Under the pieces are notes generated by a model. It did no database searches, was not told where the DNA came from, and saw only the letters and a program-made list of their open reading frames with translations. DNA of 55,989 nt from a virus (lineage: Duplodnaviria; Caudoviricetes): IMG/VR virus record IMGVR_UViG_3300022752_000086, positions 1 to 55,989 of that record; one strand, 5' to 3'. How positions within the stretch are numbered: position 1 is the stretch's first letter; each line of letters opens with the position of its first letter. The position numbers and the translations under genes were made by a program. Below are positions 3 through 55,355 of the stretch, piece after piece.

Positions 3-2594
3 ATCCCAATCTCCACTAAACCAATATGTTGTTCCTGCTCCCGGTTCATTGTATTCTGCATGATAGCACGGAGGAGTTGCAGTAGGTATATTTGTGTCGG
101 CAAAAAGTGGAGTATTGTCAAAATTAGCATCAAATAAGCTGCTGTAAGTACATCCATTTAATTCATTTATAGTTCCATATCGTACACACCAATATACAGG
201 ATTTTCACACGATCTAGAACCATCAATAAAATCTAAAGTATTGGGACAAAAAGTTATAAAACCACTTTGAGTTTTTATTGGATACGGAATATGCTGAACG
301 TATATGGCACCACTGCCACCTAAATCTGCTCGCATTTCTTTATTTGTGCAGTGTGCACAATAACGAGTGGCAGTAAAAGGAATAGTAATAGGATATTTAT
401 TAATAATATCTCCAGTTATTCCGTTTCCTCCTCCTCCTATTGCGAGACAGCTACAAGGACTTTTAGTATAATTTAATGGTATAGTAATGGAAGATGTTGA
501 CTGTAATTCTCCATCAATACAAGATACAGGATATAGAATTAGATTAGCAGCAAAATCAACATCTCCGCCAAATTGTGTTATACAATCATTAATATTACTA
601 TTGATTGTCAGAGAAAAAGTTGTACCGTTTTGGAAAGCATCGGTACTACTTACAGTATTACCATTTGCACTAAAAACCAGATTAAAACAACCTAAAGACC
701 ACACATCTATTTCTCTTATTGCAATATCAGTATCAAGAATTTGTATTTTTCCTCCAATATAATACGTTGTATTAATTGGAGCATTCATTAGAGTAAAATC
801 AAGAGAAGTGGCAGGAGTACCAACATCAGAATTATAACTAACTAAAGTTTCTGTTTTTGTTGGGTCTATAGAATGTACTACATTAATAATGGGATTGCTT
901 GTATCAATACTAAGTGTTGGTTTAGTTCCTAACTCTCCATTTTCACATTCGCTTTCTGCGTTTGTTCCTGTATAGAAAGCACCACAACCACAATCTGCTC
1001 TGGTTGTAGATGTACAGGATCCTGCCTTTCTACACCAACCAGTTTCAGCAAATGCATCACAGCCCCCTGCAGCATTAAGTTCATCTTTAGTTTTATAATG
1101 GGGAACTCCCTGTAATTTATTAACACAATAATATTCAGTTTCTTGTGTTGCAGTATAAGTTCCATCTCCATTATCAACACAGCAAGTTACTGGACCTAAA
1201 CATCCGTTTGGACATACTAGTTCAGGAGTATTTGAATCGGTATTGGTGTTAGTTCTGCGTCTAGTACTAAAAAATCCCGGATACTTATCGTAAGTAGCAC
1301 ATTTATCTGCATATTGTTTAAAAGTTCCACCAATAGAATCACACCAATTTCTTGTTACGTTTATTCGTCGTGCAATTATTGCCGTATCTCTTCCGGATAA
1401 TGTTCCACTTACTGGATCTGTTATTATTATGTTTTCCGCATAAGGGGCATTAGTATAATCAATACAACCTGTTATTCCACAACAACACACACCCAATCCT
1501 GGAGAAACTATAAAAGCACCGCCATTGCAACCAGCTTCTGTGGTTCTGGACGAACACGGAGTTAATGCAGAAAATACACCGTTTAACTCATTACATTGAT
1601 TAACAGTTTTATCGTCTAAACAATTTCCATTAACACAACAAGATCCCCAATCTGCTATTGGTGGATTATTAGTTCCAGAGTAACTTATATTTCTTTGTAT
1701 AATAGAACCATTGAATGTAACACCACCATTATCAGACCATATAGAAACTACATGCAATCCTCTGCCAGATATTCCTGAATATTTTATGCCTGTTGTTTCG
1801 TTGTTAGAAAAATATAAATTTTTTGGAAGATTTAATACTGGTCCAAACTCAGTATTAATGATTAAAGTATATTCTTGACGAACGTTACTGAACGTATACC
1901 CTCCAGTAAATCCTGTTATTCCTAATGGTCCCTGTATATAAAATACCGAACTCTGTGAAAGATCTAGAACTATATTAGCAGGATCGCTTGCACCTCCCGA
2001 CCATATTGATTTGTGAAATAGTTTTGATTCTTTAAATAATGGGTTTAACATTGGATTTCCTACAGGTATTCCAGTTAAACCAAAATTTAAAATATCGTTA
2101 GTATTAACGTATATTCTAGTAGAATCTAAAGTATTTCCGTTGATATACGGAACGTAATTAGCAGAAGCAGAAATACCGTAACTACCCACAGAACTAAATC
2201 GTACTACTGCTTGTTCTCCCTCCAGACTAATAGTAGTATTAGCACCTGCACTTAAACCATAAAAATTAAAAGTTATTCCCGTAATCCCATTAAACGGACT
2301 AAAATAGGTATTTCCAGTTTCTCCAGATACACCAATAGTATTACTCCACGTTCCTGTTGTTCCGGTAAATCCAGTAAATGTATAATCAGCACCACTACTA
2401 ATATTAAATGTTATTGTGTTTAAATCTAAATTAGAAGAAACAGAGGAAATCCAATCACCAGTGCCTCCAGTATTACCAGTGGTTAATCCTGTTGGACCAG
2501 TATTACCAGTAATACCAGTTATACCAGTAAGACCGGTTATGCCCCTAGTGCTAAAATTTCCTGGTATTATTGAAGATCCTATTGTACTTGGCAT
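3..2594 (-). CDS. Collagen-like/Cys-rich putative tail fibre or adhesin, partial (>864 aa, runs off the window start)
   Basis: Not in the ORF track because no stop lies in the window. ATG at 2594 reads MPSTIGSSIIPGNFSTRGITGLTGITGITGNTGPTG. Later DWGSCCVNGNCLDDKTVNQCNELNG and GVCCCGITGC Cys repeats. Spot-checked as open at the window edge (..TYWFSGDWD). N-terminus resembles the two upstream ORFs. Confidence 0.8.
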   Translation of the reverse strand, partial: MPSTIGSSIIPGNFSTRGITGLTGITGITGNTGPTGLTTGNTGGTGDWISSVSSNLDLNTITFNISSGADYTFTGFTGTTGTWSNTIGVSGETGNTYFSPFNGITGITFNFYGLSAGANTTISLEGEQAVVRFSSVGSYGISASANYVPYINGNTLDSTRIYVNTNDILNFGLTGIPVGNPMLNPLFKESKLFHKSIWSGGASDPANIVLDLSQSSVFYIQGPLGITGFTGGYTFSNVRQEYTLIINTEFGPVLNLPKNLYFSNNETTGIKYSGISGRGLHVVSIWSDNGGVTFNGSIIQRNISYSGTNNPPIADWGSCCVNGNCLDDKTVNQCNELNGVFSALTPCSSRTTEAGCNGGAFIVSPGLGVCCCGITGCIDYTNAPYAENIIITDPVSGTLSGRDTAIIARRINVTRNWCDSIGGTFKQYADKCATYDKYPGFFSTRRRTNTNTDSNTPELVCPNGCLGPVTCCVDNGDGTYTATQETEYYCVNKLQGVPHYKTKDELNAAGGCDAFAETGWCRKAGSCTSTTRADCGCGAFYTGTNAESECENGELGTKPTLSIDTSNPIINVVHSIDPTKTETLVSYNSDVGTPATSLDFTLMNAPINTTYYIGGKIQILDTDIAIREIDVWSLGCFNLVFSANGNTVSSTDAFQNGTTFSLTINSNINDCITQFGGDVDFAANLILYPVSCIDGELQSTSSITIPLNYTKSPCSCLAIGGGGNGITGDIINKYPITIPFTATRYCAHCTNKEMRADLGGSGAIYVQHIPYPIKTQSGFITFCPNTLDFIDGSRSCENPVYWCVRYGTINELNGCTYSSLFDANFDNTPLFADTNIPTATPPCYHAEYNEPGAGTTYWFSGDWD

Positions 2595-2618
2595 GGTTCT
2601 TTAATATGTATATTTAAT

Positions 2619-5600
2619 TCAAATCGATACAGATTTGCCGTAACTCCATAATCTACGAACAATTTCTCCAGATTCAGCAATCCTTATAGACATTGCATTA
2701 GTATGATATTTTCCAGTATTCATATATTTTATACTACTATTTATCTCTAAACTAGGAGGTATCACACTCTGTCGATACTGGCCAGAAAAACGATATGTTG
2801 GCACTACACCATAAGTATATACTTTTCCTTTAGTAGACAGTGCTGAAATATGATATAGACCAAATCCTAAAGTAGATATAGAATAATTATACCATTGTGC
2901 TGGTACAGTATTCATAGAAAATTGATTAGAAGTAATATCATTAAAATAACTTGGAGCACCTCCACTTAAACAAATAACTGGGAATACTTTTCCTTCATTG
3001 GTTATAAACATAGCCTGATCTACACCCGCAACAACTTCTCGTATAGAACGGAATGAACGAATATATGAACTATAAGGATTAATAGAACATCCCCCTATTT
3101 GACCCCCACGAGAAAGATCATACAAATATTGTGGAATACCTGGACCAATCCATTGTCGGTTGTAGCTGATTTGAGGCAATACTAAACCAAGATCGGTAAG
3201 ATATAGCGCATATCCATTGCCTATAGTAGCATCAGTAAACACTGGAGCAAAATCTGTTTGTTTTTCTAAAGTAGCACCAAGTCCAATAACTCTTTGATCA
3301 CTAAGAACCAAAATACTCTGATAATTTGTATCATAAGTTCTTGTTAAAACTGGTATATGCGATTTGCCTAGAGTAATGATCGGACCTTCGCTCATGGGAT
3401 TAGCAACAAGACTATTATATGTTGCAAATTTCTTTTGGAATGAAAGTTGTTCGTATCTATTATCGCCCCATCCAAACAATACATCATGAACATTAGATGA
3501 TGGCATATATGGATACGTGTGCCATATTTCTCGTTCAAACGTATCTCTCCAAACTGTGGCATTGAAATATCCGCCAGCATTAATTCCTAGAGGATAATTA
3601 TTAATAACACCTGCTCTAAAACTAGTATTTGGAGACAGTCCATAGAAAGAATCTACATTTGGCTCACCATCTACACTTGCTGTACTGTAATAAGACCATC
3701 CCCATTTTCTACCATCAGTATAAGCATTTAGTAAATATTTTGAAGAATTTCTTAATTGTTTGGTATCAAATTCATAAAATGGAACAGACTGTTGATACGT
3801 ATTATCACCAAACGAATAAACTGGATTCATTCCTTCTATTTCTTTTCGTATAACAGCAGTACCTGTAGATAATGTATTAATATAATCGACAATATTTGTG
3901 GGAACTCCCTCAGACCATCCAGGAGTATCTAAACAATCATATTTAATACCAAAATTATCATATGCAAATGTCCAAGTTAGTGTAGAACCAGCACATTCAT
4001 CATTATAATATTTAAAACCAACAACATGAGTTGTGCCTGCAGCTAAATGCTTATATGCATTTCCAAAAATTATTCCAGACCTATTGTCTCCACTATAACT
4101 GGTTGTTGCTCTATCTTTAACAAATTGTTGTAAATTTCCTTTTATGCGTATACCACCACGGTCTGAAACTTGACTACTGCAACCAGTATCTCTTACTTGT
4201 GGGTCTAACCATGCCGTAAATTCTCTACCAAGACTCATATCAATAACATTTACATTTGGTATTTCTGTTTGACCATGAGTATTTCTACCCCAACATAATG
4301 GAGTTTTCATATAACGATCTACACCAGATAAATAAGAATTTTGATTTGTTGAGATACAATTATGATATCCCCCAGCCCATATTTCTTCTATCTCAGTATC
4401 ATTAACAAATAATTTATTTATTTCATACGCTGTTTTTGGCCAGACACATTGATTATCTGAATTATTTCCCCAACATAAAATTTTATTTTGTTGTTCTATT
4501 TCGTCTTTGTATAATAAACATGTATGTTCATCACCAGCTTGTAATTTAATTATATTAGTTCCACTAATTGAATCTATAGGAGTTACTAATGCAAATCTAT
4601 TAAATGGATCTATTATTTTTAATGTTCCATCTTTATGAATTAATGCTATATGAGAAGCCTCAGTATTCCAAGTGCCATCTATAATTGCTTTGGATCTGTC
4701 TGGTGTTCCATCTAAATTTCTAACTCCAGGATATATTAGATTCCATTTTGGATTATTATCATTATTGGACGGATCATATGATGTAATTCTCACATCATTA
4801 TCTGTTCCTATTGTAAAATAGAACATCTTATTTCGTTTAATATCATATGAAGGAGAAAGTGGATGTTTGATTGCAGATTGTATTTTAATTATTTCTTCAG
4901 TATCGTCTTTAGATTTATCTCTAGTATTAATATTAGAGATATCTAATCCATTAGTATCAGATGAATTATAATTTTTACCTTCTAAATTAAAATACGGACT
5001 ATCATATAATTCTGATGAATGCCTATCAGGAATACCAATATTTGTAATAAACCATTTAAATAATCCTGGCCCTGTTCTAGTAAATGCTATTCTTTCAGAA
5101 TAATTTTGTGATATAACACCAATTCTAGAAATATTAATATTTCTATAACAAGAACCACACTGTGCTAAAATATTTGAATCTTCATATAATTGTAATAATT
5201 CAACATCTGTATTATTTTTATAATATTCTTTGATTCCTTCTTTTTCATATGAAACAAATTGTGTATCATACGTATTATTAAAATTACCAAAAAGATAACC
5301 AGAATCTATAGTTAAAGTTTGTCCCAACAATCCATCGTCTCGTATTTGTTTAAAACTATCGATATTATCAAAAAGATATTCATATTTTGTTTCATTATTT
5401 TTATTAAAACAATATGGAATATAATTACCAAACACATTTGGTTGTGAAATCTTTAAAAAGTTATATGCTTTAAATTTAAATAATAATTTTTTATTAGGTA
5501 AACTACTCTGTGCTCTATATTGATTTTTTAGATCTACTAATGCACCAATTAATGGTTTTAGTTCTAAGAATAATTTAATAAATCTAGTTTGGCCTCCAAT

Positions 5601-8600
5601 ACTATATTTAAAATAACTAGACCAATAATTCCAAATAAATTCGCTATCAGTTAATAGATAAACATCACAGTTTTTTATTGGATCCCAACCTGTAGATTCG
5701 CAATAATCGTACCTATCTAAAAACCCTTTAAACCAAACATTTTCTATCCAAGCTATGTGAACAGGATCTGATATTTCATAGAATACTTCAAATTGTTTTT
5801 GACCATTTGATAATTCTGAAAGTTCTGTTATTCGAATTTTCATCTTTTTATTAAAAAGATTACTATTTTCAACAGATCTAGTAGCTGACCATAAAACAGG
5901 TGGATCCATAGATGTTAAGTCTGATGGTGTTGTTGGTATTGCAGCACTTAAAGAAGTAATAGAACCAATAGGTTCTTTATTATAATCAAATATAGTAGTA
6001 TTTTTAGTAGATGCTTTTGCAAATGATACCCATATTAATTTATTATCAAAGTCCCATCCACGTATAATACCATTATCGTGACCAGAATATAAATTGCCAA
6101 AATGATCACTTTCTAATACTGTTACTTTACTTTTAGGATAATTGTAACCAATTACATTAGTATATTGTAAAGAATCTAACAATAAATCATTATCTGGATT
6201 GGATGGATCTATTTCCAATATATCTCCAGTATTAAATCCAACAAATATTTCACATTTTCCATTTTTAGAACAGATAAAATCTGTTATTGTATTAGAAAAT
6301 GTTCTGGAGTATGATTGTGTTTCGTATGGTGTATCAGATTCTAATCTAATATCATCCATATTCCAGGTATTACTTATAGTGACAGAACCATCATCTATAT
6401 CATTTATAATAGTAGAAGGTATACCGATAATATTGTCGTTTTCGTCTACTACAAATAAATTTCCTTCCATACGCAAAGAATTATTGGTAGGATGATTATA
6501 CAATTCTGCAAGAGTTTCGTTTTCTCTGAAAAGAGTATCTCTAGATAGACGAACAATATATTTAAATCTTTTTAATTGTTCTCTTTCTTTTGCATAAAAA
6601 TGAAAAGCTATATTTACAGATGTATTATATTGTTTACATGTCAATATTATTCTATTAAAATATCGTAAAGCTTCTAAATCAATTGGTTGAGTATTCTGTG
6701 TAATTCTACTAATAATCTGACCAGTTTCTGAATTTATAGATTCTAAACGTAATATAAATTTCATTACCTTTTTAGATTTTTCTGTTAGTCTATGAGTTGT
6801 AATGGTATTTGATGTTGCTATTATTAATCGTCTAGATGAAGGAAATGCCCATTTTGCTTTAATAATTGGAGAAGATGTTTTAATGCTTTTTATAACTGTA
6901 ATCTTTTTATCCTGTATCATATCGTTAGCATCAAGCACTACTACTTCTCCGCTATCTAAATTATTCATACTTATTAATAAATATTTTTGATCAAAACTCC
7001 AATCTATATTTTTAATTTCTTTATTTTCAAAGGGTGTATTGAATATAGCTTCAAAACTAGCATCAAATATTGATTTAGCTGTAGTTTGTGGTATTAATTC
7101 TTCTGGTAGTTCGTCTTGTTTTGCATAAGTTGCTCCCCATACAACTATATTTTGATCATATAGCGAATATGTAAATCCTTTAAGCGTTCCTCGTTGTTGC
7201 TCAATATTTTCTGGAATATTATAACCGTCGCTAGTATTTCTTGTAGCTGAATTACCATAATATAAAGGAACAGTTACATTTAATAAAATATTACTTGGAA
7301 CTTTATTTTGTCTTAAACCAAAATATCCAGCATATACATTGTGGTATTTTCCAGCAGATGCTGTTATTAGTTGATAATCGTCTAAAGAAGTACTTGTTTG
7401 ACTGAGATCTCCATTGCCATATCCAGGTCCAAACACAGAACAAAAAGAAGCAGTTACACCTTCCATTTTAAGTACAAAATCATCATATTTTTGATATTTT
7501 ATATCTAATGATTTATTTGCTTTATTCTGAGGAGGCAAAGATACCTGACCATATTCGTTTTGGCCTCCAACAACAATAAAATTTTGGTATTTTGCAAAAT
7601 ATGTATTTAATGGTCCATATACTGTTGGGAATAATCCTGCAGCAACAGCACCATTGAAAAGAGTTACTCCTCTATTATCTTCCCAACTCAGTAATTTTAC
7701 TTTATTAGAACCATCGTATATTTGTGCTTCAATATACTGATTGTAATCGGGAGGATAATCTCTTTCAGGATCTCTAGTTAATATGATATTATGATCTGCT
7801 CTTGTAGAAACATGTTCTATATTCACATGTCTATAATCATTTAATAAACATGCTCTACAATTTATATTTGCATCTTCAAAACTGAGAGTTTGGGCTCCAG
7901 GTTCACCACATTCAGGTCTTCTTTCACTACAAGGACGCCATTTTCCATCGACTCTATTATCTTTAGTATACCACTCAGAATTATAACAATCTTCTAAAGC
8001 ACTATCACAATACTGGCAATCACAATCTGTAGCACAGCTATTGTAGCATGGGCATGGATCTTGAAGACATTGATTTCTTCTTTGATCTCGTATCCAAGAT
8101 TCTGCACTATGATCATTTTGATCGTATAATTCTATTCCTCCAAGATATCTTCCTTGAGGATTTGGATCACCATATGCGTATGAGATACCACCAAATACAT
8201 CTTTACAGCAATTTGGGAATAATCTAAGATTATTATCTGCAGTTAAACCTAAACGATTAGCACAATCCTGTATCTGATCTTCTGGTAATTCTATAGTAGC
8301 AATACCTGTCATGCCTCTGCCTTGGAATTCTGCTCCTCCCCAGGTAAATGCAACATAATTATTAGCATCAGAGATTAGTGATGCAAAATTATGTTTATTG
8401 CCTGCAGCATATACACGATGACCAAATTTTGAATTAGAAGTTTCAATAAATTTAGCACCCTCACCACCAATATTTTCTGTTGATTCGTTTTCTGAATTTT
8501 CACCTGCAGTTAAATATGTTTTTCCTTGTATTCTATATGCACAAGGTATAGATTGAATATAGATTCCACTTTCTATTGGTTTTAGTGGAGAATATTTAAT

Positions 8601-11600
8601 TGTTTGTACTGGTAGATAAAAATTATCACTAGAGAATATATCAGGTCTATCAGGATCTGATATAAAATTATGAGTATGGGCATAAATTGCTTGTATATTA
8701 CTATACGGATTAAAGAAAGTTTTATAACTTTTTTTATTCACTTCCGAAAAATCATAAACAGTATGATACATACCACAACTTATAGGAGCAGTTCTAGTTC
8801 CAACAAATTCTGGTGAAATATTTGCATTTAAAAATGCTGGTATCCAGGGTTTTTCTTTATATGTTTGTTTTCGTAAATCTCTGCCTTCTATTTTTTCAAT
8901 ATCTCCAAGCTGCCCTTGACTATTATCTCCCCAATTATAGTTACCGTAAACATTAAAACATACCCAAAGACTGTCATTTTTATCTGGTCTGAATCTAAAA
9001 ATATATTTATTTTCAATATACGGATTTGGTCTTCCTTTACAATTAATATCATCGTCACATAAATTATCACTTTTCCAAAAATATTTTAACTTTAACCATT
9101 TAGGAAAATGTAATCTATTTAAATATCCTTTTCTATTAAAAAAGCCATCTGCTAATTTTTGATCACCTTTGTCAGATACTGCTTGATTTTGTTCTGGAAT
9201 AATGTCTCTAAGATCAATAAAATCCAAAGCTTTTCCATCATTTTCTATATTTATTTCAACTATTTTTGTTTCTCCGCCTTCAACAACTACAACTTCTCTA
9301 GTAAAATCATTCCAAATATATTTTGTTGGAATAGCATCTGATAATGTAGAAAACTCTGAAGCATGATCAGTATATTCTAATGGATATGATGCTTCTGTAT
9401 TTGCATAAAACATACTTCCAAATAATGCCGTAGTATCTATCAAATATTCTTTACAACTATTTCTAGAATTAGTATCTGTTTCATCAATATTACAAGGATC
9501 TCCACATTCATTAAATGAATTTAAAATTTTTACCCATGGTTTTACTCTTGGATCTGCAATATCTAATTTACCACAAACTTTAATCATACCTCTAGCAGAT
9601 GCATGGTGATTACTAGCATCCATATTAAGAGTGTATACATTATAACCAAATCGACCACTTATAGATTCTAGTGGAGTAAATCCTTTCTTTATATCATTTA
9701 ATAAGATACAATCTGAACATTCTGGTAATGATTTCTTTAGATTGGAATCCGAAGCCCATATATTGTGGTGAAGATCAAAATAATCTACTCGCTCATTGGT
9801 ATTTGGATTCCATCCTAGTGCAAATGAATATGCATCTAGCCAATCGTATTCTTTAATTATTAATTGACCTGTAGTATCGTCTTTAGCAAATCCCCAATTT
9901 ATACCAAATTGAGATTTATATCCTGGTTTAAAATCAATAGGAAATCTATTATTACTTTTATATTGTCCGATTCCAAATGATAGTTCATTAGGATCTAAAG
10001 AACCATCTAGTATAGATTCTTTAAATATTGCATGCCATTTATAATGATCTCTGGGAGTATTACAATAAAAAGTAAATGCAGTTGCCCCATCAATAACATC
10101 GGACTCCTGAATCATAAAAAACTGTGTTGGTCCTATTCCATAATATCCATCTCTTTGAGTATTTTTGAAAAATCCTAAAGGATTAACAGACCATTTATCG
10201 GGGTCTCTTCTTGTTACAGTGGTTTCTCCAGTTGTTTCATCTACTATAGTTGTTATTGGTCTGTAACTGGGATAATCAAATTCACTATCAGACGGACCAT
10301 GGGTTACGGCTATTCCTCTATTATAATTTTTATTTTTATAAGCACTACCAAAATCAGCAAATATTGGTAATGGAATTCCAGTTATTCCATCTATTCTACT
10401 TAATGGATATGGAGTTAATTTTGTAATATCTGATTGATTATTCAAATATTTTTGATAATCAAAACCAGCATTCAATCCGTGACCGTCTATGAATTGATAT
10501 ATTTTTGCATCATCGTATTTTATATTAGGTCTATTGATATACCCAGAACCATAATTTAAAAATATACTAAGTTCTCTATTAATAGGATAACTAAAATTAT
10601 AATAAATTGGTCTATAATCTGCAACAAATATCTCTTCAAAAAATTCTGTAGCAGAGAATGTTGTATCTCCCCATGTGTCTAGTGTATCTTGTTCTATTTC
10701 GGCATCTGACCCAGAACTAGGTAATAATACAGTTTCTTGATCCTTTGCGATAACTATATTATTTTCTCCAACAATATTTCCTATATCTGAATCCATTTTT
10801 GCATTAGTGTGTTCATTAAAATTACTAACACCAATAGTTTCTCGTGGAGGAAAAGCACTTAATACAGAATAACCGGGATTTCTTTGCCCAGGAGATATTA
10901 TTGGTACTGTAGCTAAACTTTCAGAAGAACCAAATCCCCATCCGTATACAATACCATCTTCAGTTAAACCTATAGTATATTGATTTGCACAATTAATCTT
11001 AGTAAATTTATTTGTCTTACTATAAACTTCATTACATTGATTACTTCTATTATCTCCCCATAATATTAAAGATCCATCTGGTCTTATACCACCACTATGA
11101 TAATCTCCAGCAGAGAGATATATAAAATTATATTTCTTTTTTAATTCATCCGTTGGGATTACGGATTGGCCATAATGAGGATTTGATTGTTTTGCATTAG
11201 CAATAGCATCTTTTTCAGAACCTGCTCCCCACGCATATGCTTCTCCGGTCTCAGTTAATGCCATACTATGATATAAACCAGCAGATACTTGTTTTGCTTT
11301 AATTGGTTTACCATTTATTAGAGGTGGTTGTGTTTGGCCGTAATTTACAGTATTGGATATTTCTGAACCATATATTTCTGCGCCCCAACAATATACCTGA
11401 TAATCTTCATATTCTACACCAGCTATAGTTCTTCCAATATCATATGGTCCTTTGTATAAAATACCAACATTATGATAATTGTTTGCAGAAATCGATCTAA
11501 ATCGTAAAGGAATACCATCATCGGCCAAGGGCAACCCTATTTGACCGTAATTTTCTTCTATATCTGGATCTCCCCAAACATACGGTAAATAATCAATAGG

Positions 11601-14600
11601 AGAAGCAACACCATCAATTGGTGGATCATTTATAATACCAATAGTATGCCAACGACCCATTGACATTTCTTTAAATGATGTAAATTCATATAGATCACCA
11701 TCTAGAACAATACCAGCAGAATATTGATATAAATTCTTATAAGCAATATCATTTTCTATACGAGTTCCTAGTGTTTCGTTTTGATTATAACCATAACTGA
11801 TCCAATTTTCATCATATTTAACAAATGGACTGTCATCATCACCAACTTTAATATAATATTTTTCTATTTTTACAGCAGTACCAAGAGTATTTGTTAGTAC
11901 TTCTACTGGCAATACACGTATAGCAAACATGTCTCCATTATTTGGATCTACTACTAATTTTACTTTTTCAAAAAGTAAGTTTAGATTTCTTGGTTGAGTT
12001 TTATATCTGAATCCCCAAGGAACTACTCTTGAAAAATATCCAATATCATTATTATTCCATTTAATATCTGGAATAGTTTTTATAGCAATTCCTCTGAAAC
12101 CATCAGCAGCAATATCTCTACAGGAATATCCTGTATTATTTGGATCTTTTAATTTTTCTCGCCTTATAAATTGTAAATATTCTTTAAGAGTGGGATCTTC
12201 TAAAGAACCATAATGGCTTAATAACCATTCTATAGGTTTAGTAGATATTCCAGTAGTTCCTATTAAATCTGTTTTATAAATCTTTTCATTTATGTACGGT
12301 TCATTTTTTCCATCTCCATAGATTTTTAATTGTTTATATGGAGTATCAATTACTGCAATTGTTGTATTGGATGCACTTCCGGTTTTTAACCACTTTATAT
12401 CTGGAGACGGATATTCTGTTAATACAGGATCATTACCAAATCCTATAATATCACCAACTCCCAATACGTCATCCACATAACCTTTAAGAACTAAACTGTG
12501 TTCTTTTCCTGCAGATATTTTTTTAATTATTCTTCCCCTTTCCAGATTTGTTAATTCTGGTGGTATAGATTCTATATTATCTTTAATATCTCCAAATACG
12601 TAAGGACTATCGTCTTTATCGATAGCTAATGTTAAATTACCTTTGGCATAAACATGTTTAAATTTTTTATTTTGTAATATTGGATCTGTAGAAATATCGC
12701 ATACACCATTATAATTATTATCACATAAACAATCCACAGTACCATCTTCAAACAATATTACTACATGCTCATCACCCAGTGAAAAATCAACAACCTTTTT
12801 AGAAAATTGTTTAGTTTTTATCCAAGAATTTTCAGAAGTACCATATCCCCATCCAATATAACCATAACGATTTGGGGCAAGAGAATAGATAACTCCATTA
12901 TAAAATGGACCACTACCAATAAATTTAATATATTGTTCTATTTGTTTAACTCTTTCTGGTATTATTGACTGGCCAAAATCGTATTTTTTAGCATTTAGAT
13001 CATTTTGAGTTAAAGTTCCTGCACCATATGCAACTAAATTTTTTCTTTCATTAGTATTTTGTAATACTAAAGTATGAAAATGCCCACAACTAACTTCTAT
13101 AGCGTAATCGTTTTCATTGGAATATGTTATACTTTTTGCTTGATCAAAAGAAAAACTAGTTTGTGGTTTTTTTGGTATACCAACACCCCAACAAATAACA
13201 TCTCCTGGATTATATGAAATATCTCCTATAGTTAATTCTTCATCTGCTATTATACAAGAATGATAGAATCCACTAGAAGCTTGATAGCGATTTATATTTC
13301 TAGAGATAGTATCTATGAATAATGGTTCATTTGAATTTTTTATACTAAAAAATGGGTTTTCTGGACCTTTAGAAGCAATTACGGCTTTCCAAAACTCTGA
13401 TTGCTTTTTGGTATCAGAAACCGGACCATTTAATCCAGTAAATCCAGTACCATTTGGTATAGCCATAATATAACCTTTAGAACAAGCAGGAGATGTATCA
13501 AACGTTATTCCATTATCGTGTAGACATTCATCAGAGGCAACAATATACATTCCATGCCTGTGCCCAAGAGTAGCTGCAAGAATTCGTCTTGATAAAATAC
13601 CATTTGGCCAAGCACCACAATATAAATCCGAAGAAAAGGCAGGATCTCTATTTGTTAATGTGGTATACGGATCACAAGCAAATGGAGAAACATCATTTCC
13701 ATATCGATCTTTATTAATTACTATTAATTCACTATTATTCCATGTTCGTAAATAACCACCATTTCTATTAATTAATAATATTTCTCCCGATTCTCCTGAA
13801 TACATTTTATTTAATACGTAATTTTTATCAGAAGCTGTAGTTGAAGTTAATATAGTATAATTTTGAAGTTTACTATAATCATTCATAAAAAATAGATCAG
13901 GTTTCATGGTATAATATGCCATATTACCTGAAGTTAGTAGATTTGTTATTTCTTGTTTAATAAATCTTGGTTCATAGTATTTTTCTACAATTTCATTTTT
14001 TGTTTTTTCGCAGATATTAAACAAACCGTCAAATGCATATTGTCTAGATGTCCAAAGAGGATCCTTTGTAGGACGATTAGAGCAAAACACATTATTTTCT
14101 ATTACGGTTGATTGTATAGATGGATATGATGCTACTTCATCTACGCGTGTAAATGTACTCTGATCAAATTTTAATATTAATTGTTCTTTTAATATCTGTT
14201 TAGAACAACCCAGCAAATCGTCTTCATCATTTGTTAAATTTTGATCAGAATCTAGATCTGCACATGGATTTATGTTTTTAAATATAGGAAATAATTGTGT
14301 TTTATTATCTTCGGTTTGCCATACGTATTGCTGAGTTTCCTTATAAAAACAATGATTACTTCCTAAAAATTGTTGTGCGGTTAGTCCTGTAAAACCAGAT
14401 CCTCTTGTGATATACGCTAAATTTAAATCAACAAAATCACATTCATCTCCCGAAATACAATTTATACATGTGCGATTATTTGCTTTCCATATTATGGATC
14501 TATAATGAGATGCTCCTTTTCTGCATCCGTATAAATTAGAACATCCAGATAATGGTTTTTTAATAGGATTTCCATCATCATCTAATCTTTCTGGATTTTC

Positions 14601-17600
14601 TGCTGTTGGAAGACCGTATGTGCCGTCATCCAATAAAAGTATATCTTTATATGTTTCTAAATCACTATCCCACGTTATACCAAATGGATACGCTGGATCT
14701 GTTTCGTCTGTTTGATATCCACCATATAACCATAATGCACAGTTAAAATCAACCTCTGGATCGCACGGCTCCGTTGAATGATATGTCCTAGGAGAAATAC
14801 ACCAAGGTCTAGAATCTCCTGGCCTTCCTGGATCTTTACATGTTTCATATATTTGATTTGCTATAAATGTTCCACCTTTAAAACATACTGGTTTTTCAGA
14901 TGGATTTTGCATTCCAGTTATGCCTTGGGTGATAAACATAGCATATCCTGGTTCTCCACCAAATTCACTGTATCGTTTAAATGGTCTTTTGCCTACTATG
15001 GTATTTTTAATAGTCTCGAATTCAACTTCATTCATCACTCTACAACTAAAACAACCACTATTTACTCCATCGTTCCATAAAGATTTATCTTGACTATAAT
15101 CATAGAATTTTTTATAGTTACTTAAATCTATATTTGTATTGTAATGAAATAAAGCTATTCCTGTTAAACCAGAATTTGATGGTTTTTTATTTCCAGTGTC
15201 TACTCCACCAGGTTCTGTTTCTAATGATTCGTTAAAAATATGATCAAGATATGTTGTTCCTGCACAGCCATATGAATTTAATAGTAAATAAATATTTTCG
15301 TTTCTATCTACAGCAAAGAAAGGTATTTCTACTGCAGAAAGATTTATTTCTTGTTGATTTAATTGTTTATTAAATCTTTCAACTGCACTTGGCAGTCCTT
15401 TCTTTATTAGATTTGTACCAGTATCCGCAGTAATTCCTATAATACCATCATGACCCCATGCATATAATTTATTATTTTTACCAAGAGCTGCAATTGAATA
15501 CGGAGAACATGCTATAAGTTTTGTTTTAACTGTATTTAATTCTAGTGGTTTTGAAACTAATTCTCTATTCAAATTTTTTCTTATCTGCCCGTAAATAGTA
15601 TCATCAAAATCACTTATTCTTGAGTCTCCGCTTATATTATTTAAAGTAACTCCTCGGAAAGATCCCCAAGTATACACATCTCCAGTATCTGTTAATGCTG
15701 CAGTAAAATAATATCCGCATTCTAATTGTATAACTGTTTTATCATTTAATGATTCAGGAACTGTGGATTGGCCATAATTAGGCCAATTATTAAGCGAATC
15801 TGCAGTAGTTCCTGCGCCCCAACATAAAACTTTACCATCATCTGTAAGACCACATGTATGATAACGACCAGTAACAACTCTAACAAATTTTCTATTAGTC
15901 TGTGGTGTATTTAATTGATTAAATGAGTTACTACCCCAGGTTACTATTTTACCATCAATTCTAAGAGCAGCAGCATGTAAACCAGTAGCAGACACATCTA
16001 AAAATTGACCACTTGGTAATGGAAATAATGGAAAGTCGTATTGTTTATAATAATTTGCAGGAGAACCACTACCAAATAAAGTTCTATCAGAACGTTTTAT
16101 TCCTATAAAATAATCATAATTAGGAGTTGGTATTGCTAAATTGTATCGTCTACCAAAATCTGAAAGAATAATAAATTTTTCTCTAGGATTAGCAGTGCCC
16201 AAAGTACCATACCATATATTTGCTTTTCTATCAATTAAATTTTCAAAAACACTCTTAGCAAATGATTTACTATAAAGTTTTGTTTTATCTTTTTTTAGTA
16301 TTGGTATTTTTGTTACAGGATCTAGGGGTGGTGTATTATCTATAAATTGATCACAAGTTTGATAAGCTATGGGTTTTGCTAAAATCAATATATGATTTTC
16401 GCCTATAGCAATATCATCCGCAAACCAATCTTCTATATTATCTGGATTTGTACACTCTGTTTTAGGTGTTCTTATTTGTATTATTTTAGAACCAATAAAT
16501 TCACCCCAACATAACACATTTCCATCTTCCATTATACCACAACTATATTCTGAAGGATATGTTTTACTAGCTAGCTTTATTATTTTTTTTTTTGTTAAAG
16601 AGCCACCACAGTCTAAAGCATCACAAGTAGCTTGTACAAAACTACAATCTGCTCCTGCAGGAAGTGCAAAATATTTAAATCCTAATGCTAAACACTGTTC
16701 TCTAGACAAATTTTGAGTACAAGTAGCACTATTACTAACACCCGTATCATTATTAGTGCCGCATGTACAGCAGGCACCATTTTCTGGTATATCACTTTTA
16801 CAAGACAAATCGTTTCTTCTGTCAGAGCATGATATAGTTTTAAATGAACCACTTAATTGATTGCATTGTTGTTGTGTAATGTAATCATAACAGACTGTAG
16901 AATTTATTTCAGAGGCATCAGTATTACAGAAACAACAAGAACCCATACTCGGAATATATGGATAATTTATTGCCCCTTCAGTTTCAAATAATAGATTTGA
17001 ATCGTTTACAATTACAGTATCTACACCATCATTGAATTTAAAAGTATTTTTACTATACCAATTTTTATCTGTGTTGTCATAATAAAATTGAGAAATACTA
17101 ATATTTGTATTTTGTACAGTTATACCACTACTAGAAGTATTAATATTATCTGTTAAACTTTGTAAAAATAAAGTTATACCTGTATTTTCAATCCAATCGT
17201 AAGTTATTCCAGTATTATAAGTAAAACCAGATAATGATATTGCACTTGATCCACTGGCTCCAATTAATGATTTATTTTGTAAAGATCGTACTGCCGCAGT
17301 ATTAGGTGCCTCTATAACAAAATCATTTCCTTGATACGAAAGAGTAATTCCTACTCCCTCTATAACTTTAAATGTTGTTGTTATACCAACAACACTTTGA
17401 ACTAATAAGAAATTCTGTGTTAGATCAGAAGAAGGAACTGTGCCTCTAAATTCGTAATACTGATTGGCTATAGAACCATAACTAGTCGGAGCAGAACCAG
17501 TATTTCCAGTTAATCCATCTATTATTAATGTAGTACCATCGGGATCATTTAGTGTGATAATAACTTTATCAGAACCGCTTTTTGATAAAGAGCTTATACT

Positions 17601-17744
17601 ATAACCAAAAGGTCCTGTATTTCCTGTTGGGCCAGTGTTACCGGTATTTCCTTGTGGTCCTGGAGGCCCTTGCGGTCCACGTCCTCCTGCTCCACCTGGA
17701 ACATAAATTGTTTGTATTGTGCTATTACCAATATTACTGGGCAT
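2619..17744 (-). CDS. Giant 5041-aa virion fibre/adhesin-like protein (collagen-like, GACC Cys repeats, many RCC1/BLIP-II repeats, WD40-like segment)
   Basis: GPQGPPGPQGNTGNTGPTG near the N-terminus; GSCC/GACC repeats; repeated RCC1 units such as VSATGLHAAALRIDGKIVTWGSNSFNQL and LSAGDYHSGGIRPDGSLILWGDNRSNQC; WD-like LYSGHDNGIIRGWDFD. Lies in the tail operon. Confidence 0.75.
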   Translation of the reverse strand: MPSNIGNSTIQTIYVPGGAGGRGPQGPPGPQGNTGNTGPTGNTGPFGYSISSLSKSGSDKVIITLNDPDGTTLIIDGLTGNTGSAPTSYGSIANQYYEFRGTVPSSDLTQNFLLVQSVVGITTTFKVIEGVGITLSYQGNDFVIEAPNTAAVRSLQNKSLIGASGSSAISLSGFTYNTGITYDWIENTGITLFLQSLTDNINTSSSGITVQNTNISISQFYYDNTDKNWYSKNTFKFNDGVDTVIVNDSNLLFETEGAINYPYIPSMGSCCFCNTDASEINSTVCYDYITQQQCNQLSGSFKTISCSDRRNDLSCKSDIPENGACCTCGTNNDTGVSNSATCTQNLSREQCLALGFKYFALPAGADCSFVQATCDALDCGGSLTKKKIIKLASKTYPSEYSCGIMEDGNVLCWGEFIGSKIIQIRTPKTECTNPDNIEDWFADDIAIGENHILILAKPIAYQTCDQFIDNTPPLDPVTKIPILKKDKTKLYSKSFAKSVFENLIDRKANIWYGTLGTANPREKFIILSDFGRRYNLAIPTPNYDYFIGIKRSDRTLFGSGSPANYYKQYDFPLFPLPSGQFLDVSATGLHAAALRIDGKIVTWGSNSFNQLNTPQTNRKFVRVVTGRYHTCGLTDDGKVLCWGAGTTADSLNNWPNYGQSTVPESLNDKTVIQLECGYYFTAALTDTGDVYTWGSFRGVTLNNISGDSRISDFDDTIYGQIRKNLNRELVSKPLELNTVKTKLIACSPYSIAALGKNNKLYAWGHDGIIGITADTGTNLIKKGLPSAVERFNKQLNQQEINLSAVEIPFFAVDRNENIYLLLNSYGCAGTTYLDHIFNESLETEPGGVDTGNKKPSNSGLTGIALFHYNTNIDLSNYKKFYDYSQDKSLWNDGVNSGCFSCRVMNEVEFETIKNTIVGKRPFKRYSEFGGEPGYAMFITQGITGMQNPSEKPVCFKGGTFIANQIYETCKDPGRPGDSRPWCISPRTYHSTEPCDPEVDFNCALWLYGGYQTDETDPAYPFGITWDSDLETYKDILLLDDGTYGLPTAENPERLDDDGNPIKKPLSGCSNLYGCRKGASHYRSIIWKANNRTCINCISGDECDFVDLNLAYITRGSGFTGLTAQQFLGSNHCFYKETQQYVWQTEDNKTQLFPIFKNINPCADLDSDQNLTNDEDDLLGCSKQILKEQLILKFDQSTFTRVDEVASYPSIQSTVIENNVFCSNRPTKDPLWTSRQYAFDGLFNICEKTKNEIVEKYYEPRFIKQEITNLLTSGNMAYYTMKPDLFFMNDYSKLQNYTILTSTTASDKNYVLNKMYSGESGEILLINRNGGYLRTWNNSELIVINKDRYGNDVSPFACDPYTTLTNRDPAFSSDLYCGAWPNGILSRRILAATLGHRHGMYIVASDECLHDNGITFDTSPACSKGYIMAIPNGTGFTGLNGPVSDTKKQSEFWKAVIASKGPENPFFSIKNSNEPLFIDTISRNINRYQASSGFYHSCIIADEELTIGDISYNPGDVICWGVGIPKKPQTSFSFDQAKSITYSNENDYAIEVSCGHFHTLVLQNTNERKNLVAYGAGTLTQNDLNAKKYDFGQSIIPERVKQIEQYIKFIGSGPFYNGVIYSLAPNRYGYIGWGYGTSENSWIKTKQFSKKVVDFSLGDEHVVILFEDGTVDCLCDNNYNGVCDISTDPILQNKKFKHVYAKGNLTLAIDKDDSPYVFGDIKDNIESIPPELTNLERGRIIKKISAGKEHSLVLKGYVDDVLGVGDIIGFGNDPVLTEYPSPDIKWLKTGSASNTTIAVIDTPYKQLKIYGDGKNEPYINEKIYKTDLIGTTGISTKPIEWLLSHYGSLEDPTLKEYLQFIRREKLKDPNNTGYSCRDIAADGFRGIAIKTIPDIKWNNNDIGYFSRVVPWGFRYKTQPRNLNLLFEKVKLVVDPNNGDMFAIRVLPVEVLTNTLGTAVKIEKYYIKVGDDDSPFVKYDENWISYGYNQNETLGTRIENDIAYKNLYQYSAGIVLDGDLYEFTSFKEMSMGRWHTIGIINDPPIDGVASPIDYLPYVWGDPDIEENYGQIGLPLADDGIPLRFRSISANNYHNVGILYKGPYDIGRTIAGVEYEDYQVYCWGAEIYGSEISNTVNYGQTQPPLINGKPIKAKQVSAGLYHSMALTETGEAYAWGAGSEKDAIANAKQSNPHYGQSVIPTDELKKKYNFIYLSAGDYHSGGIRPDGSLILWGDNRSNQCNEVYSKTNKFTKINCANQYTIGLTEDGIVYGWGFGSSESLATVPIISPGQRNPGYSVLSAFPPRETIGVSNFNEHTNAKMDSDIGNIVGENNIVIAKDQETVLLPSSGSDAEIEQDTLDTWGDTTFSATEFFEEIFVADYRPIYYNFSYPINRELSIFLNYGSGYINRPNIKYDDAKIYQFIDGHGLNAGFDYQKYLNNQSDITKLTPYPLSRIDGITGIPLPIFADFGSAYKNKNYNRGIAVTHGPSDSEFDYPSYRPITTIVDETTGETTVTRRDPDKWSVNPLGFFKNTQRDGYYGIGPTQFFMIQESDVIDGATAFTFYCNTPRDHYKWHAIFKESILDGSLDPNELSFGIGQYKSNNRFPIDFKPGYKSQFGINWGFAKDDTTGQLIIKEYDWLDAYSFALGWNPNTNERVDYFDLHHNIWASDSNLKKSLPECSDCILLNDIKKGFTPLESISGRFGYNVYTLNMDASNHHASARGMIKVCGKLDIADPRVKPWVKILNSFNECGDPCNIDETDTNSRNSCKEYLIDTTALFGSMFYANTEASYPLEYTDHASEFSTLSDAIPTKYIWNDFTREVVVVEGGETKIVEINIENDGKALDFIDLRDIIPEQNQAVSDKGDQKLADGFFNRKGYLNRLHFPKWLKLKYFWKSDNLCDDDINCKGRPNPYIENKYIFRFRPDKNDSLWVCFNVYGNYNWGDNSQGQLGDIEKIEGRDLRKQTYKEKPWIPAFLNANISPEFVGTRTAPISCGMYHTVYDFSEVNKKSYKTFFNPYSNIQAIYAHTHNFISDPDRPDIFSSDNFYLPVQTIKYSPLKPIESGIYIQSIPCAYRIQGKTYLTAGENSENESTENIGGEGAKFIETSNSKFGHRVYAAGNKHNFASLISDANNYVAFTWGGAEFQGRGMTGIATIELPEDQIQDCANRLGLTADNNLRLFPNCCKDVFGGISYAYGDPNPQGRYLGGIELYDQNDHSAESWIRDQRRNQCLQDPCPCYNSCATDCDCQYCDSALEDCYNSEWYTKDNRVDGKWRPCSERRPECGEPGAQTLSFEDANINCRACLLNDYRHVNIEHVSTRADHNIILTRDPERDYPPDYNQYIEAQIYDGSNKVKLLSWEDNRGVTLFNGAVAAGLFPTVYGPLNTYFAKYQNFIVVGGQNEYGQVSLPPQNKANKSLDIKYQKYDDFVLKMEGVTASFCSVFGPGYGNGDLSQTSTSLDDYQLITASAGKYHNVYAGYFGLRQNKVPSNILLNVTVPLYYGNSATRNTSDGYNIPENIEQQRGTLKGFTYSLYDQNIVVWGATYAKQDELPEELIPQTTAKSIFDASFEAIFNTPFENKEIKNIDWSFDQKYLLISMNNLDSGEVVVLDANDMIQDKKITVIKSIKTSSPIIKAKWAFPSSRRLIIATSNTITTHRLTEKSKKVMKFILRLESINSETGQIISRITQNTQPIDLEALRYFNRIILTCKQYNTSVNIAFHFYAKEREQLKRFKYIVRLSRDTLFRENETLAELYNHPTNNSLRMEGNLFVVDENDNIIGIPSTIINDIDDGSVTISNTWNMDDIRLESDTPYETQSYSRTFSNTITDFICSKNGKCEIFVGFNTGDILEIDPSNPDNDLLLDSLQYTNVIGYNYPKSKVTVLESDHFGNLYSGHDNGIIRGWDFDNKLIWVSFAKASTKNTTIFDYNKEPIGSITSLSAAIPTTPSDLTSMDPPVLWSATRSVENSNLFNKKMKIRITELSELSNGQKQFEVFYEISDPVHIAWIENVWFKGFLDRYDYCESTGWDPIKNCDVYLLTDSEFIWNYWSSYFKYSIGGQTRFIKLFLELKPLIGALVDLKNQYRAQSSLPNKKLLFKFKAYNFLKISQPNVFGNYIPYCFNKNNETKYEYLFDNIDSFKQIRDDGLLGQTLTIDSGYLFGNFNNTYDTQFVSYEKEGIKEYYKNNTDVELLQLYEDSNILAQCGSCYRNINISRIGVISQNYSERIAFTRTGPGLFKWFITNIGIPDRHSSELYDSPYFNLEGKNYNSSDTNGLDISNINTRDKSKDDTEEIIKIQSAIKHPLSPSYDIKRNKMFYFTIGTDNDVRITSYDPSNNDNNPKWNLIYPGVRNLDGTPDRSKAIIDGTWNTEASHIALIHKDGTLKIIDPFNRFALVTPIDSISGTNIIKLQAGDEHTCLLYKDEIEQQNKILCWGNNSDNQCVWPKTAYEINKLFVNDTEIEEIWAGGYHNCISTNQNSYLSGVDRYMKTPLCWGRNTHGQTEIPNVNVIDMSLGREFTAWLDPQVRDTGCSSQVSDRGGIRIKGNLQQFVKDRATTSYSGDNRSGIIFGNAYKHLAAGTTHVVGFKYYNDECAGSTLTWTFAYDNFGIKYDCLDTPGWSEGVPTNIVDYINTLSTGTAVIRKEIEGMNPVYSFGDNTYQQSVPFYEFDTKQLRNSSKYLLNAYTDGRKWGWSYYSTASVDGEPNVDSFYGLSPNTSFRAGVINNYPLGINAGGYFNATVWRDTFEREIWHTYPYMPSSNVHDVLFGWGDNRYEQLSFQKKFATYNSLVANPMSEGPIITLGKSHIPVLTRTYDTNYQSILVLSDQRVIGLGATLEKQTDFAPVFTDATIGNGYALYLTDLGLVLPQISYNRQWIGPGIPQYLYDLSRGGQIGGCSINPYSSYIRSFRSIREVVAGVDQAMFITNEGKVFPVICLSGGAPSYFNDITSNQFSMNTVPAQWYNYSISTLGFGLYHISALSTKGKVYTYGVVPTYRFSGQYRQSVIPPSLEINSSIKYMNTGKYHTNAMSIRIAESGEIVRRLWSYGKSVSI

Positions 17745-17774
17745 ACTATAATAGTAGTTATATTAAATTAATTA

Positions 17775-24143: not shown

Positions 24144-24842
24144 TTATGATACGTTTTGTATTACTCCGCCATTTAATGTGACTAAATCGTAAGTAATTGG
24201 TGTTCCTGCTTTTGTAAGTACTTTAAATATTGGAAAAAAGTTATTTGCAGTTGCTGTTGCGTCTTCGGAATATCCGATGACATTTATTCTTATTCTATCT
24301 GCCCCTGATGTTTTTATTGAAGATCCACCACCAGAATTATCAGAAAGATTAGTATCAGCTGTATAATCTACTGCAGTAAATACGTCTAGATATAATCCAT
24401 ATTGTGTTCCATTTATAGCAGCAGACGGGAAGTTTATAGAAGAACTAAATGTATTTTTATTCCATATCCATATTCCAAATCCACTAGTACTAGTACTAGT
24501 AGGAATATTAACGTAGAACCAACCTGGTGTAATTGTTACCGTTCTAGTAGTACCAGTTCCAGATATTGTAAAATAATTAGGATCTAGAGGAGTTGCACCT
24601 GGCCAAAAAGGCATTCCTTTGTCTTGCCAATTACTGATACATGTGTTCGTCAGTGTTTGTTGTAAATAAAATTGTTCTTGTAATTCATTTAATTCTGATG
24701 CTTGAAGGGGAAATCCAGGCTTAAATCCTATTAAATAATAATTTTTAGGCCCTCCAAAAGTAGTATCATAGTTACCATTAATTCTACTGAAATAAGGAGA
24801 AGACGATAGTGGTAAAATATCAAATGGTGGTATTGAAATCAT
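24144..24842 (-). CDS. Short DUF4815/VrlC-like virion structural protein, 232 aa
   Basis: PYF..KNYYLIGFKPGFPLQASELNELQ and GADRIRI match the DUF4815 N-terminal signature; position after gp8 as in cyanophage-like T4s. Confidence 0.7.
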   Translation of the reverse strand: MISIPPFDILPLSSSPYFSRINGNYDTTFGGPKNYYLIGFKPGFPLQASELNELQEQFYLQQTLTNTCISNWQDKGMPFWPGATPLDPNYFTISGTGTTRTVTITPGWFYVNIPTSTSTSGFGIWIWNKNTFSSSINFPSAAINGTQYGLYLDVFTAVDYTADTNLSDNSGGGSSIKTSGADRIRINVIGYSEDATATANNFFPIFKVLTKAGTPITYDLVTLNGGVIQNVS

Positions 24843-37690: not shown

Positions 37691-37698
37691 TATTTATA
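37691..37698 (-). promoter_or_regulatory. T4-type late promoter TATAAATA
   Basis: Exact consensus overlapping the stop of the 870-aa ORF, 10 nt before the ATG at 37680. Confidence 0.6.
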
Positions 37699-43088: not shown

Positions 43089-43096
43089 TATAAATA
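43089..43096 (+). promoter_or_regulatory. T4-type late promoter TATAAATA for the gp4 operon
   Basis: Exact consensus in the 26-nt divergent gap, 15 nt before the gp4 ATG. Confidence 0.65.
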
Positions 43097-47182: not shown

Positions 47183-47190
47183 TATAAATA
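47183..47190 (+). promoter_or_regulatory. T4-type late promoter TATAAATA
   Basis: Exact consensus followed by GGAGA and the ATG at 47206. Confidence 0.75.
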
Positions 47191-48513: not shown

Positions 48514-48514
48514 G

Positions 48515-50197: not shown

Positions 50198-50198
50198 T

Positions 50199-50206
50199 TA
50201 TAAATA
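50199..50206 (+). promoter_or_regulatory. T4-type late promoter TATAAATA
   Basis: Exact consensus in an 18-nt gap, 9 nt before the ATG at 50216. Confidence 0.65.
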
Positions 50207-50215
50207 AAAATAACA

Positions 50216-55272: not shown

Positions 55273-55343
55273 TGCGGGTAAAGGGAATCGAACCCTTGTC
55301 TACTGCTTGGAAGGCAGTCGTGCTACCATTATACCACACCCGC
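55273..55343 (-). tRNA. tRNA-Gly (anticodon TCC), CCA not encoded
   Basis: GCGGGTG TGGTATAATGGTAGCAC GACTGC CTTCCAA GCAGT AGAC AAGGG TTCGATT CCCTT TACCCGC A: acceptor, anticodon and T arms all pair. Confidence 0.93.
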
Positions 55344-55355
55344 GTGTTCTGTCAA
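55328..55355 (-). promoter_or_regulatory. Consensus sigma70 promoter overlapping the uvsE end and the tRNA
   Basis: TTGACA-N16-TATAAT with an extended -10 TGn. Confidence 0.6.

Follow-up and report, generated by a model that had tools for sequence, protein, structure and literature searches.

The DNA analysed here (the window) is a whole viral record of IMG/VR, IMGVR_UViG_3300022752_000086, which is linear, 55,989 bases long and has a CheckV completeness estimate of about 25%. Its G+C content is 26-40% per 2-kb step, mostly around 30-34%. Judged by its gene content, the window belongs to a T4-like myovirus: it encodes the gp6 baseplate wedge protein (phrog_219, 1.4e-60), gp25 (PF04965), a gp53-like protein, a head-closure protein, a match to the T4 baseplate hub protein (PF12322, 5e-41) and a gp32-type single-strand DNA-binding protein (6.2e-111). 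The nearest cultured relatives, cyanomyoviruses and the Pelagibacter phage HTVC008M, are distant, with about 55% identity in gp32 and about 26-27% in gp6, and a megablast search of phage GenBank gave no match. The public runs that contain its DNA are lake-water or freshwater metagenomes from four studies (2015-2019), so the phage is regarded as a freshwater and not a marine one. The subject of this report is one giant gene on the minus strand, whose product of 5041 amino acids (aa) carries several regions of RCC1-type repeats and may be a fibre-like appendage of the virion.

All genes from position 43127 down to position 3 lie on the minus strand, separated by tiny gaps. The block starts with a 300-aa open reading frame (ORF), a gp53-RCC1 fusion (637 aa), an 870-aa tail protein, a 2247-aa RCC1_2 protein and a 355-aa tail protein. 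It continues with gp25, gp6, a wedge protein (PF23786), ORFs of 593 and 232 aa and an 802-aa protein, and closes with ORFs of 369 and 942 aa, the giant gene and an ORF of at least 864 aa. The 802-aa protein is similar to phrog_4492 ‘tail fiber protein’ (3.2e-26) and to annotated tail fibres of Stenotrophomonas phages, which are myoviruses. This order supports the placement of the giant gene in a T4-like block of baseplate and tail-fibre genes. The features are listed in Table 1.

Table 1. Positions of the giant gene, its parts, its neighbours and motif copies in the window. Tiles are the 400-aa pieces used in family searches; pI, isoelectric point; AF2, AlphaFold2; iE, independent E-value.
Feature	Position	Strand	Remarks
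Giant ORF	2619..17744	-	ATG start, 5041 aa, 566.6 kDa, pI 5.15, no transmembrane-like segment
Conserved N-terminal peptide, aa 1-16	17697..17744	-	Pattern common to both flanking genes, alignment of four N-termini
Short collagen-like Gly-X-Y run, aa 17-49	17598..17696	-	9-10 triplets by eye
Cys-rich region, aa 270-379	16608..16937	-	Internal duplicate, aa 264-298 vs 319-355; no Pfam match at E <= 5
RCC1 cluster 1, aa ~398-790	15375..16551	-	RCC1_2 8.4e-35, WD40_RLD 4.5e-33 (tile 3); AF2; Foldseek
Unassigned region with scattered conserved Cys, aa 800-1310	13815..15347	-	No Pfam, PHROG or NCBIfam match
RCC1 cluster 2, aa ~1490-1755	12480..13277	-	Tiles 7-9; blades at aa 1492-1536 and 1657
RCC1 cluster 3, aa ~2030-2290, five detected blades	10875..11657	-	Tiles 10-12; PDB sequence matches to RPGR and RCC1
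Unassigned conserved region, aa 2290-2930	8955..10877	-	60-83% identity to P0002 per 100-aa block
Weak RCC1 blade(s), start of cluster 4, aa 2936-2996	8757..8939	-	RCC1 19 bits, below cut-off; blade iE 1e-5
Cys cluster, aa 3161-3299	7848..8264	-	Cys pattern kept in P0002
Region aa 3201-4400	4545..8144	-	P0002 sole relative among 1.84 billion representatives
Weak WD40-like signal, aa 3567-3634	6843..7046	-	Beta-prop_WDR35_TULP_N E 0.0031, ANAPC4_WD40 E 0.0089
RCC1 cluster 5, C-terminus, aa ~4391-5019	2688..4574	-	Tiles 22-25; blades at aa 4403, 4457, 4723 and 4962
Upstream 942-aa gene	17775..20603	-	Similar N-terminal peptide; Gly-X-Y run aa 20-46; 34 Cys
Downstream gene, at least 864 aa, runs off the window	3..2594	-	Same N-terminal pattern; Gly-X-Y run aa 18-38; 35 Cys; Cys-rich module
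Second giant ORF, 2247 aa	30937-37680	-	Among hub/wedge genes; 60 Cys; RCC1_2 at aa ~300-416; no other family
gp53-like wedge N-terminus with RCC1 propeller, 637 aa	40312..42225	-	Phage_gp53 1.2e-5, RCC1_2 8.5e-27, phrog_232 1.4e-15
TATAAATA copies near ORF starts	30938-30945, 37691-37698	-	
TATAAATA copies near ORF starts	43089-43096, 47183-47190, 50199-50206	+	

Integrity and Conservation of the Giant ORF

The open frame of the giant ORF comprises 5047 codons, the upstream stop lying only six codons before the ATG. From the base composition of the strand, 0.085 stops are expected per codon, and the log10 chance of 5041 stop-free codons is -195. The first-pass annotation of this DNA, made from its letters and ORFs, had described one uninterrupted ORF of 15.1 kb, which is what was found, and had named misassembly as a possible flaw. 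In run X1, a 50,685-base Logan contig spans positions 1000-19500 of the window with 0 differences; as X1 is possibly the source sample, it counts as a second assembly and not as a second sample. In two runs of other studies (X2 and X3), 30 of the 30 bins are covered, 29 of 35 and 38 of 48 pieces being at least 99% alike, and six single-base differences to the window are listed. The ORF is free of tandem repeats, and none of its direct DNA repeats exceeds 38 nucleotides (nt), so that nothing in it could mislead an assembler. Joints between read pieces were not read as rearrangements: their sides are 20-44 letters long and fall mostly in the Gly-X-Y repeat of the downstream gene or in pieces of low likeness.

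The strongest evidence for a real ORF is a homologue from another assembly (P0002, 5034 aa), which aligns collinearly with 100% of the giant protein at 64% identity and with few gaps. Given the second assembly, the coverage in other studies, the absence of long repeats and this collinear homologue, the ORF is considered genuine and misassembly is excluded. Between the two proteins 98 of 101 Cys, 76 of 83 Trp and 321 of 397 Gly residues are conserved, compared with 89 of 217 Val and 189 of 393 Ser, which is the pattern of a folded protein.

No relatives of the giant protein turned up in IMG/VR, scanned both with aa 1-2600 and with aligned sequences of aa 1601-2400, in scans of JGI metagenome contigs, or in a search with aa 1-385 among proteins of 675-2000 aa, the only lengths searched. 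Two distantly related viral records (G001 and G002) gave no match to its first 100 aa.

RCC1-Type Repeats and Predicted Fold

Membership of the RCC1 family, as defined by the curated cut-offs of PF00415, PF13540 and PF25390, applies to the giant protein. In aa 1-2600, WD40_RLD scores 245.8 bits (cut-off 150), RCC1_2 181.6 (22) and RCC1 46.5 (21.7); in aa 2400-5041, RCC1 exceeds its cut-off with 29.3 bits, WD40_RLD (68.6) and RCC1_2 (16.8) both staying below theirs. When the protein is cut into 400-aa tiles, an RCC1-type match (E <= 0.05) is found in 15 of the 25 and none in the other ten. A blade profile for which unrelated bacterial RCC1 proteins supplied 400 blades detects 11 blades at iE <= 0.01 in the giant protein and 0 in 20 shuffled copies. 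After iteration on both giant proteins, it detects 14 blades at the same threshold (0.05 per shuffled copy) and six further matches at iE 0.01-1 (0.75 per shuffled copy). The proposed scan with hidden Markov models thus confirms the RCC1 repeats. Internal repeat identity is only 21-42%, which indicates that the blade duplications are old.

The first-pass annotation had placed five RCC1 clusters at about 15450-16550, 12450-13600, 10920-11660, 7340-8950 and 2620-4550. Four of them are clear and lie near these positions. The fourth (7340-8950) is weak, being reduced to aa 2936-2996 at a score below the cut-off; two sub-threshold blades follow it, at aa 3114 and aa 3317. The bounds in Table 1 are converted from tile matches, the outer ends of clusters 1-3 being set from the blade profile as well.

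An AF2 model of aa 385-800, based on a 47-row alignment, has a mean predicted local distance difference test (pLDDT) of 60.7 and a predicted template modelling score (pTM) of 0.61. It is confident for about five of the seven expected blades (model residues 1-30, 190-310 and 350-380), with a pLDDT of 84-97 at model residues 190-310 and below 50 at 33-189. Foldseek with this model retrieves UVR8, RPGR, the RLDs of HERC2, RCC1 and BLIP-II (E 3.5e-12 to 3.8e-9, probability 1.00), at query-normalised template modelling scores of only 0.36-0.39 over 231-244 columns. A PDB sequence search with the giant protein gives the same RCC1-like families, down to 2.3e-16. Since Pfam, Foldseek on the model and the PDB search agree, the repeats are taken as RCC1-type blades. 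The expectation that they would model as propellers is borne out in part: the one cluster modelled, the first of five, takes the form of an RCC1-like propeller in part, its stretch at model residues 33-189 being poorly predicted. No reading is drawn from a model of aa 1-1200 on a two-row alignment (mean pLDDT 27.3).

Cys-Rich Modules and Regions Without a Family

A Cys-rich insert reported earlier between the clusters was located at aa 3226-3246 (nt 8007-8069), with its Cys pattern kept in P0002. The other Cys-rich region, near the N-terminus, is related to a module in the downstream ORF (3-2594), with 36% identity over 75 columns. The Cys pattern at aa 954-994 was considered as a fibronectin type II or kringle-like module and dropped, as there is no such Pfam match at E <= 5.

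About half of the giant protein is without a detectable family; no Pfam, PHROG or NCBIfam family was found for aa 50-260, 800-1310, 2290-2930 and 3960-4380. Within aa 2290-2930, the block least similar to P0002 is aa 2801-2900 (52% identity), and the best ESM Atlas score for this region, 0.80, is at chance level. At aa ~3560-3635 the cut-offs of the WD40 families are not reached (Beta-prop_WDR35_TULP_N 17.2 bits, cut-off 80; ANAPC4_WD40 16.7 bits, cut-off 22.9). In the Atlas, aa 3490-4380 resemble clusters of WD40-type propellers (0.92-0.94) with low recognition, which serves as a lead only. Over the whole protein, the blocks least conserved in P0002 are aa 3601-3800 and aa 4001-4100 (37-43%).

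A Shared N-Terminal Cap

Three consecutive genes, the 942-aa gene, the giant gene and the gene of at least 864 aa, start with a similar peptide and a few residues, followed by 7-9 or more Gly-X-Y triplets. This shared cap is the best clue to the mounting of the giant protein. The collagen stalk of the first-pass annotation corresponds to a Gly-X-Y run that does exist; with only 9-10 triplets (~30 residues) and a Pfam Collagen score below the cut-off, the word ‘stalk’ is overstated. NCBIfam models searched on 11 tiles give collagen-like adhesins at the Gly-X-Y run only, far below their cut-offs. A complex prediction with three copies of aa 1-260 gave a score of 0.26 (mark 0.42, without controls), which speaks neither for nor against a trimer.

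Neighbouring Genes

The gp53-RCC1 fusion is not confined to the window. A fusion of 614 aa recurs in a 146-kb viral record (L009:4356-6200, plus strand) whose gp6 is 34% identical to that of the window, and because of this recurrence in a distant record, RCC1 propellers on the baseplate are regarded as a clade trait. The second giant ORF, of 2247 aa, begins with a run of three cysteines. For the 942-aa protein, no match was found in phage GenBank.

Comparison with Known Systems

Cyanomyoviruses, too, have very long ORFs within a T4-like baseplate block, encoded on the strand of gp25 and gp6. In Sf-CH1b, SfCH1b_87 (3640 aa, 10,923 nt), a YHYH-domain protein in the cyanomyovirus comparison, lies directly after gp6, and SfCH1b_89 (DUF4815, 2723 aa, 8,172 nt) follows the next wedge gene. 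The 5041-aa protein differs from them in being longer, in its position further downstream, past the tail-fibre-like gene, and in consisting largely of RCC1-type blades. A tblastn search with both halves against a phage collection including Sf-CH1b gave no match to these giants. The 232-aa ORF of the window (24144-24842) has a weak DUF4815 match (E 0.0004), below the cut-off.

The fibres of T4 are trimers, beta-structured shafts in which each chain has roughly 1000-1300 residues. With gp34 and gp37 the giant protein would share the role of a baseplate-attached recognition fibre encoded at the end of the tail block. No homology to them was detected, and here the chain has 5041 residues and is apparently a string of propellers. 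Outside the Gly-X-Y run, no Pfam or PHROG fibre match was obtained to the T4-type fibre families (gp34, gp36, gp37, gp12). Among T4-like cyanophages, a Gly-X-Y run is accepted as marking a candidate tail-fibre gene (PMC1079782), as in the predicted fibre genes orf23 and orf28 of P-SSM2. There the repeats occupy up to almost half of the ORF, whereas here they are limited to the extreme N-terminus, in three neighbouring genes.

In repeat family and in the fold of the modelled blades, the giant protein resembles the seven-bladed propellers of RCC1, the HERC2 RLDs, RPGR, UVR8 and BLIP-II. Those are single propellers in cellular proteins, whereas one phage polypeptide here holds at least five repeat regions, many blades of which are too diverged to detect. 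RCC1 repeats in large myovirus proteins are also found in the RCC1-like proteins of phAPEC6 and in the PHROG families 16766, 4219 and 7220; matches of the giant protein to these families are weak (best E 9.2e-14, first half) and cover the repeats only. The Staphylococcus phage phi11 offers a precedent for a propeller that serves for receptor binding in a phage baseplate protein, namely the platform of its receptor-binding protein (PMC4901313); that propeller is five-bladed, of an unrelated family, from a siphovirus and single in its chain. In the literature we found no T4-like phage for which RCC1-type fibre or baseplate proteins are described.

Proposed Role of the Giant Protein

With slightly more than even confidence, we propose that the giant gene encodes a very large fibre-like appendage of the virion of an uncultured freshwater T4-like myovirus, attached to the baseplate and binding the host. 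A function as an adhesin is plausible. That the protein is in the virion, forms trimers, attaches at the baseplate and binds the host is what we infer from the gene context and from the fact that propellers generally serve as binding modules. Three chains would be united by their conserved N-terminal peptides and short Gly-X-Y runs and so docked on the periphery of the baseplate, a route that the two flanking proteins, with their like N-termini, may use as well. The remainder of each 567-kDa chain would form a string of beta-propeller units, with at least five RCC1-type regions and one that is probably WD40-like, between which lie unassigned globular parts and Cys-rich modules. The propeller faces could offer multiple binding sites for molecules of the host surface, resulting in high avidity, and the C-terminal RCC1 region, as the distal tip, would be foremost in binding. 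Through disulfides or bound metal, the near-invariant cysteines might keep the particle stable outside the cell.

Several observations weigh against this proposal. No part of the protein shows homology to known tail-fibre, baseplate or receptor-binding families in Pfam, in PHROG or by tblastn against phages. In the tblastn search of 50,697 phage records, the first half matched RCC1 pieces in 3 records only and the second half matched nothing. The tail-fibre PHROG matches (phrog_5073, 6320 and 366) are gone once residues 1-49 are omitted, and the Gly-X-Y run itself is short (Pfam Collagen, PF01391: E 0.0053, 16.9 bits, below the cut-off of 27.2). Fibres usually have a trimeric beta-helical architecture, from which a chain of monomeric propellers would depart. 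Only two lineages carry the giant gene, and in the relative whose gp6 is 34% identical, the 10 kb downstream of gp6 contain no ORF of ~5000 aa. Since ten of the 25 tiles lack a family match, the protein may have further activities. The late-promoter-like motif TATAAATA has no exact copy directly upstream of the giant gene, the nearest on the same strand being ~9 kb upstream; only a one-mismatch variant is present at a distance similar to that seen at other genes.

The protein could instead be a built-in part of an enlarged baseplate, a scaffold or shield round the wedge, which would not project as a fibre and whose main role would not be binding. The two Sf-CH1b giants, encoded right beside the wedge genes, fit this explanation, as do the 2247-aa RCC1-bearing protein among the hub and wedge genes of the window and its gp53-RCC1 fusion. 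The giant gene, however, sits at the distal end of the block, past the 802-aa gene for a tail-fibre-like protein, and its product is without sequence similarity to the cyanophage giants. A Gly-X-Y N-terminus common to two neighbours also suits interchangeable fibres better than a fixed wedge part, and we consider such a baseplate component unlikely. Even less probable is a decoration fibre elsewhere on the particle, on the capsid, the neck or the sheath (‘hairs’ or whiskers), which would raise the encounter rate and not trigger infection. In the jumbo coliphage phAPEC6, which codes for eleven RCC1-like proteins, both the capsid and the sheath bear hairy fibres (PMC7247149), and the three genes of the window whose products have a collagen-like N-terminus could be a set of this kind. 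In the available part of that report, however, the authors speculate about DNA organisation for the RCC1-like proteins and do not link them to the hairs; the gene order in the window, moreover, groups the giant gene with baseplate genes and not with head or neck genes.

The DNA-ordering role proposed for the phAPEC6 proteins (PMC7247149) would agree better with a protein outside the virion, a large intracellular or released product, such as a host-takeover scaffold or DNA organiser, that is merely encoded in the late block. PHROG lists the RCC1 families under ‘DNA, RNA and nucleotide metabolism’, and half of the giant protein has no assigned family. That category, however, is an inheritance from the eukaryotic RCC1 name, and an RCC1 module is fused to a baseplate wedge domain both in the phage of the window and in its relative. 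The acidic pI of 5.15 disfavours DNA binding, and the 97% conservation of Cys and the collagen-like N-terminus also speak against a non-virion protein, which we regard as very improbable.

Beyond the proposal of a single baseplate-attached appendage, a wider idea can be put forward only tentatively, and we consider it doubtful: the lineage might build its host recognition from chains of beta-propellers and not from trimeric beta-helical shafts. It would comprise an RCC1 propeller on the gp53 wedge subunit, the RCC1-bearing 2247-aa baseplate protein and three fibres docking by a common collagen-like cap, one of them a 567-kDa, cysteine-locked string of six or more propellers. If so, the giant protein would be among the longest phage adhesin polypeptides and have a distinct fibre architecture.

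Giant genes in baseplate blocks, Gly-X-Y marks of fibres, propellers in phage receptor-binding proteins and RCC1-like phage proteins are already known. What is new is the length of the chain, its composition as a succession of RCC1-type regions, about half of the chain being unrelated to anything known, the collagen-like cap common to three adjacent genes and a set of 101 cysteines that is conserved almost in full. Next to nothing is known of how uncultured freshwater phages recognise their hosts. A tail appendage without homology to any studied fibre, with repeated protein-binding propellers and near-invariant cysteines, would be a new architecture among phage receptor-binding devices. It would also mean that phage RCC1 repeats labelled ‘chromosome condensation’ can be structural modules of the baseplate, a point that the gp53-RCC1 fusion makes directly testable.

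Occurrence in Lake Samples

Positions 1000-19500 of the window are near-identical in lake or freshwater runs of several studies (2015-2019), with shared-word fractions of 1.00, 0.95 and 0.60. The persistence of an almost unchanged gene in these samples makes it tractable for metaproteomics and for binding work with recombinant proteins. Runs X1 and X6 also contain many pieces that are 90-95% alike, pointing to related strains. Among the public runs listed for the DNA of the window, there is no RNA run.

Late-Promoter-Like Motif and the Right End of the Window

The motif TATAAATA is depleted in the window (7 copies, 19.75 expected), and five of the seven copies end 6-15 nt upstream of ORF starts. 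This placement is as expected for T4-type late promoters, as which these copies may be read, though unusually near the start codons. On the plus strand, three ORFs of 435, 560 and 1304 aa without a Pfam or PHROG match occupy 47206-54130, and the 435-aa and 1304-aa ORFs are each closely preceded by TATAAATA. The right end of the window encodes, on the minus strand, a SpoU-type RNA methylase (54397-54975) and a UvdE UV-damage endonuclease (55329-55964), the listed end of the latter being overlapped by a tRNA-Gly(tcc) gene on the same strand (55273-55343).

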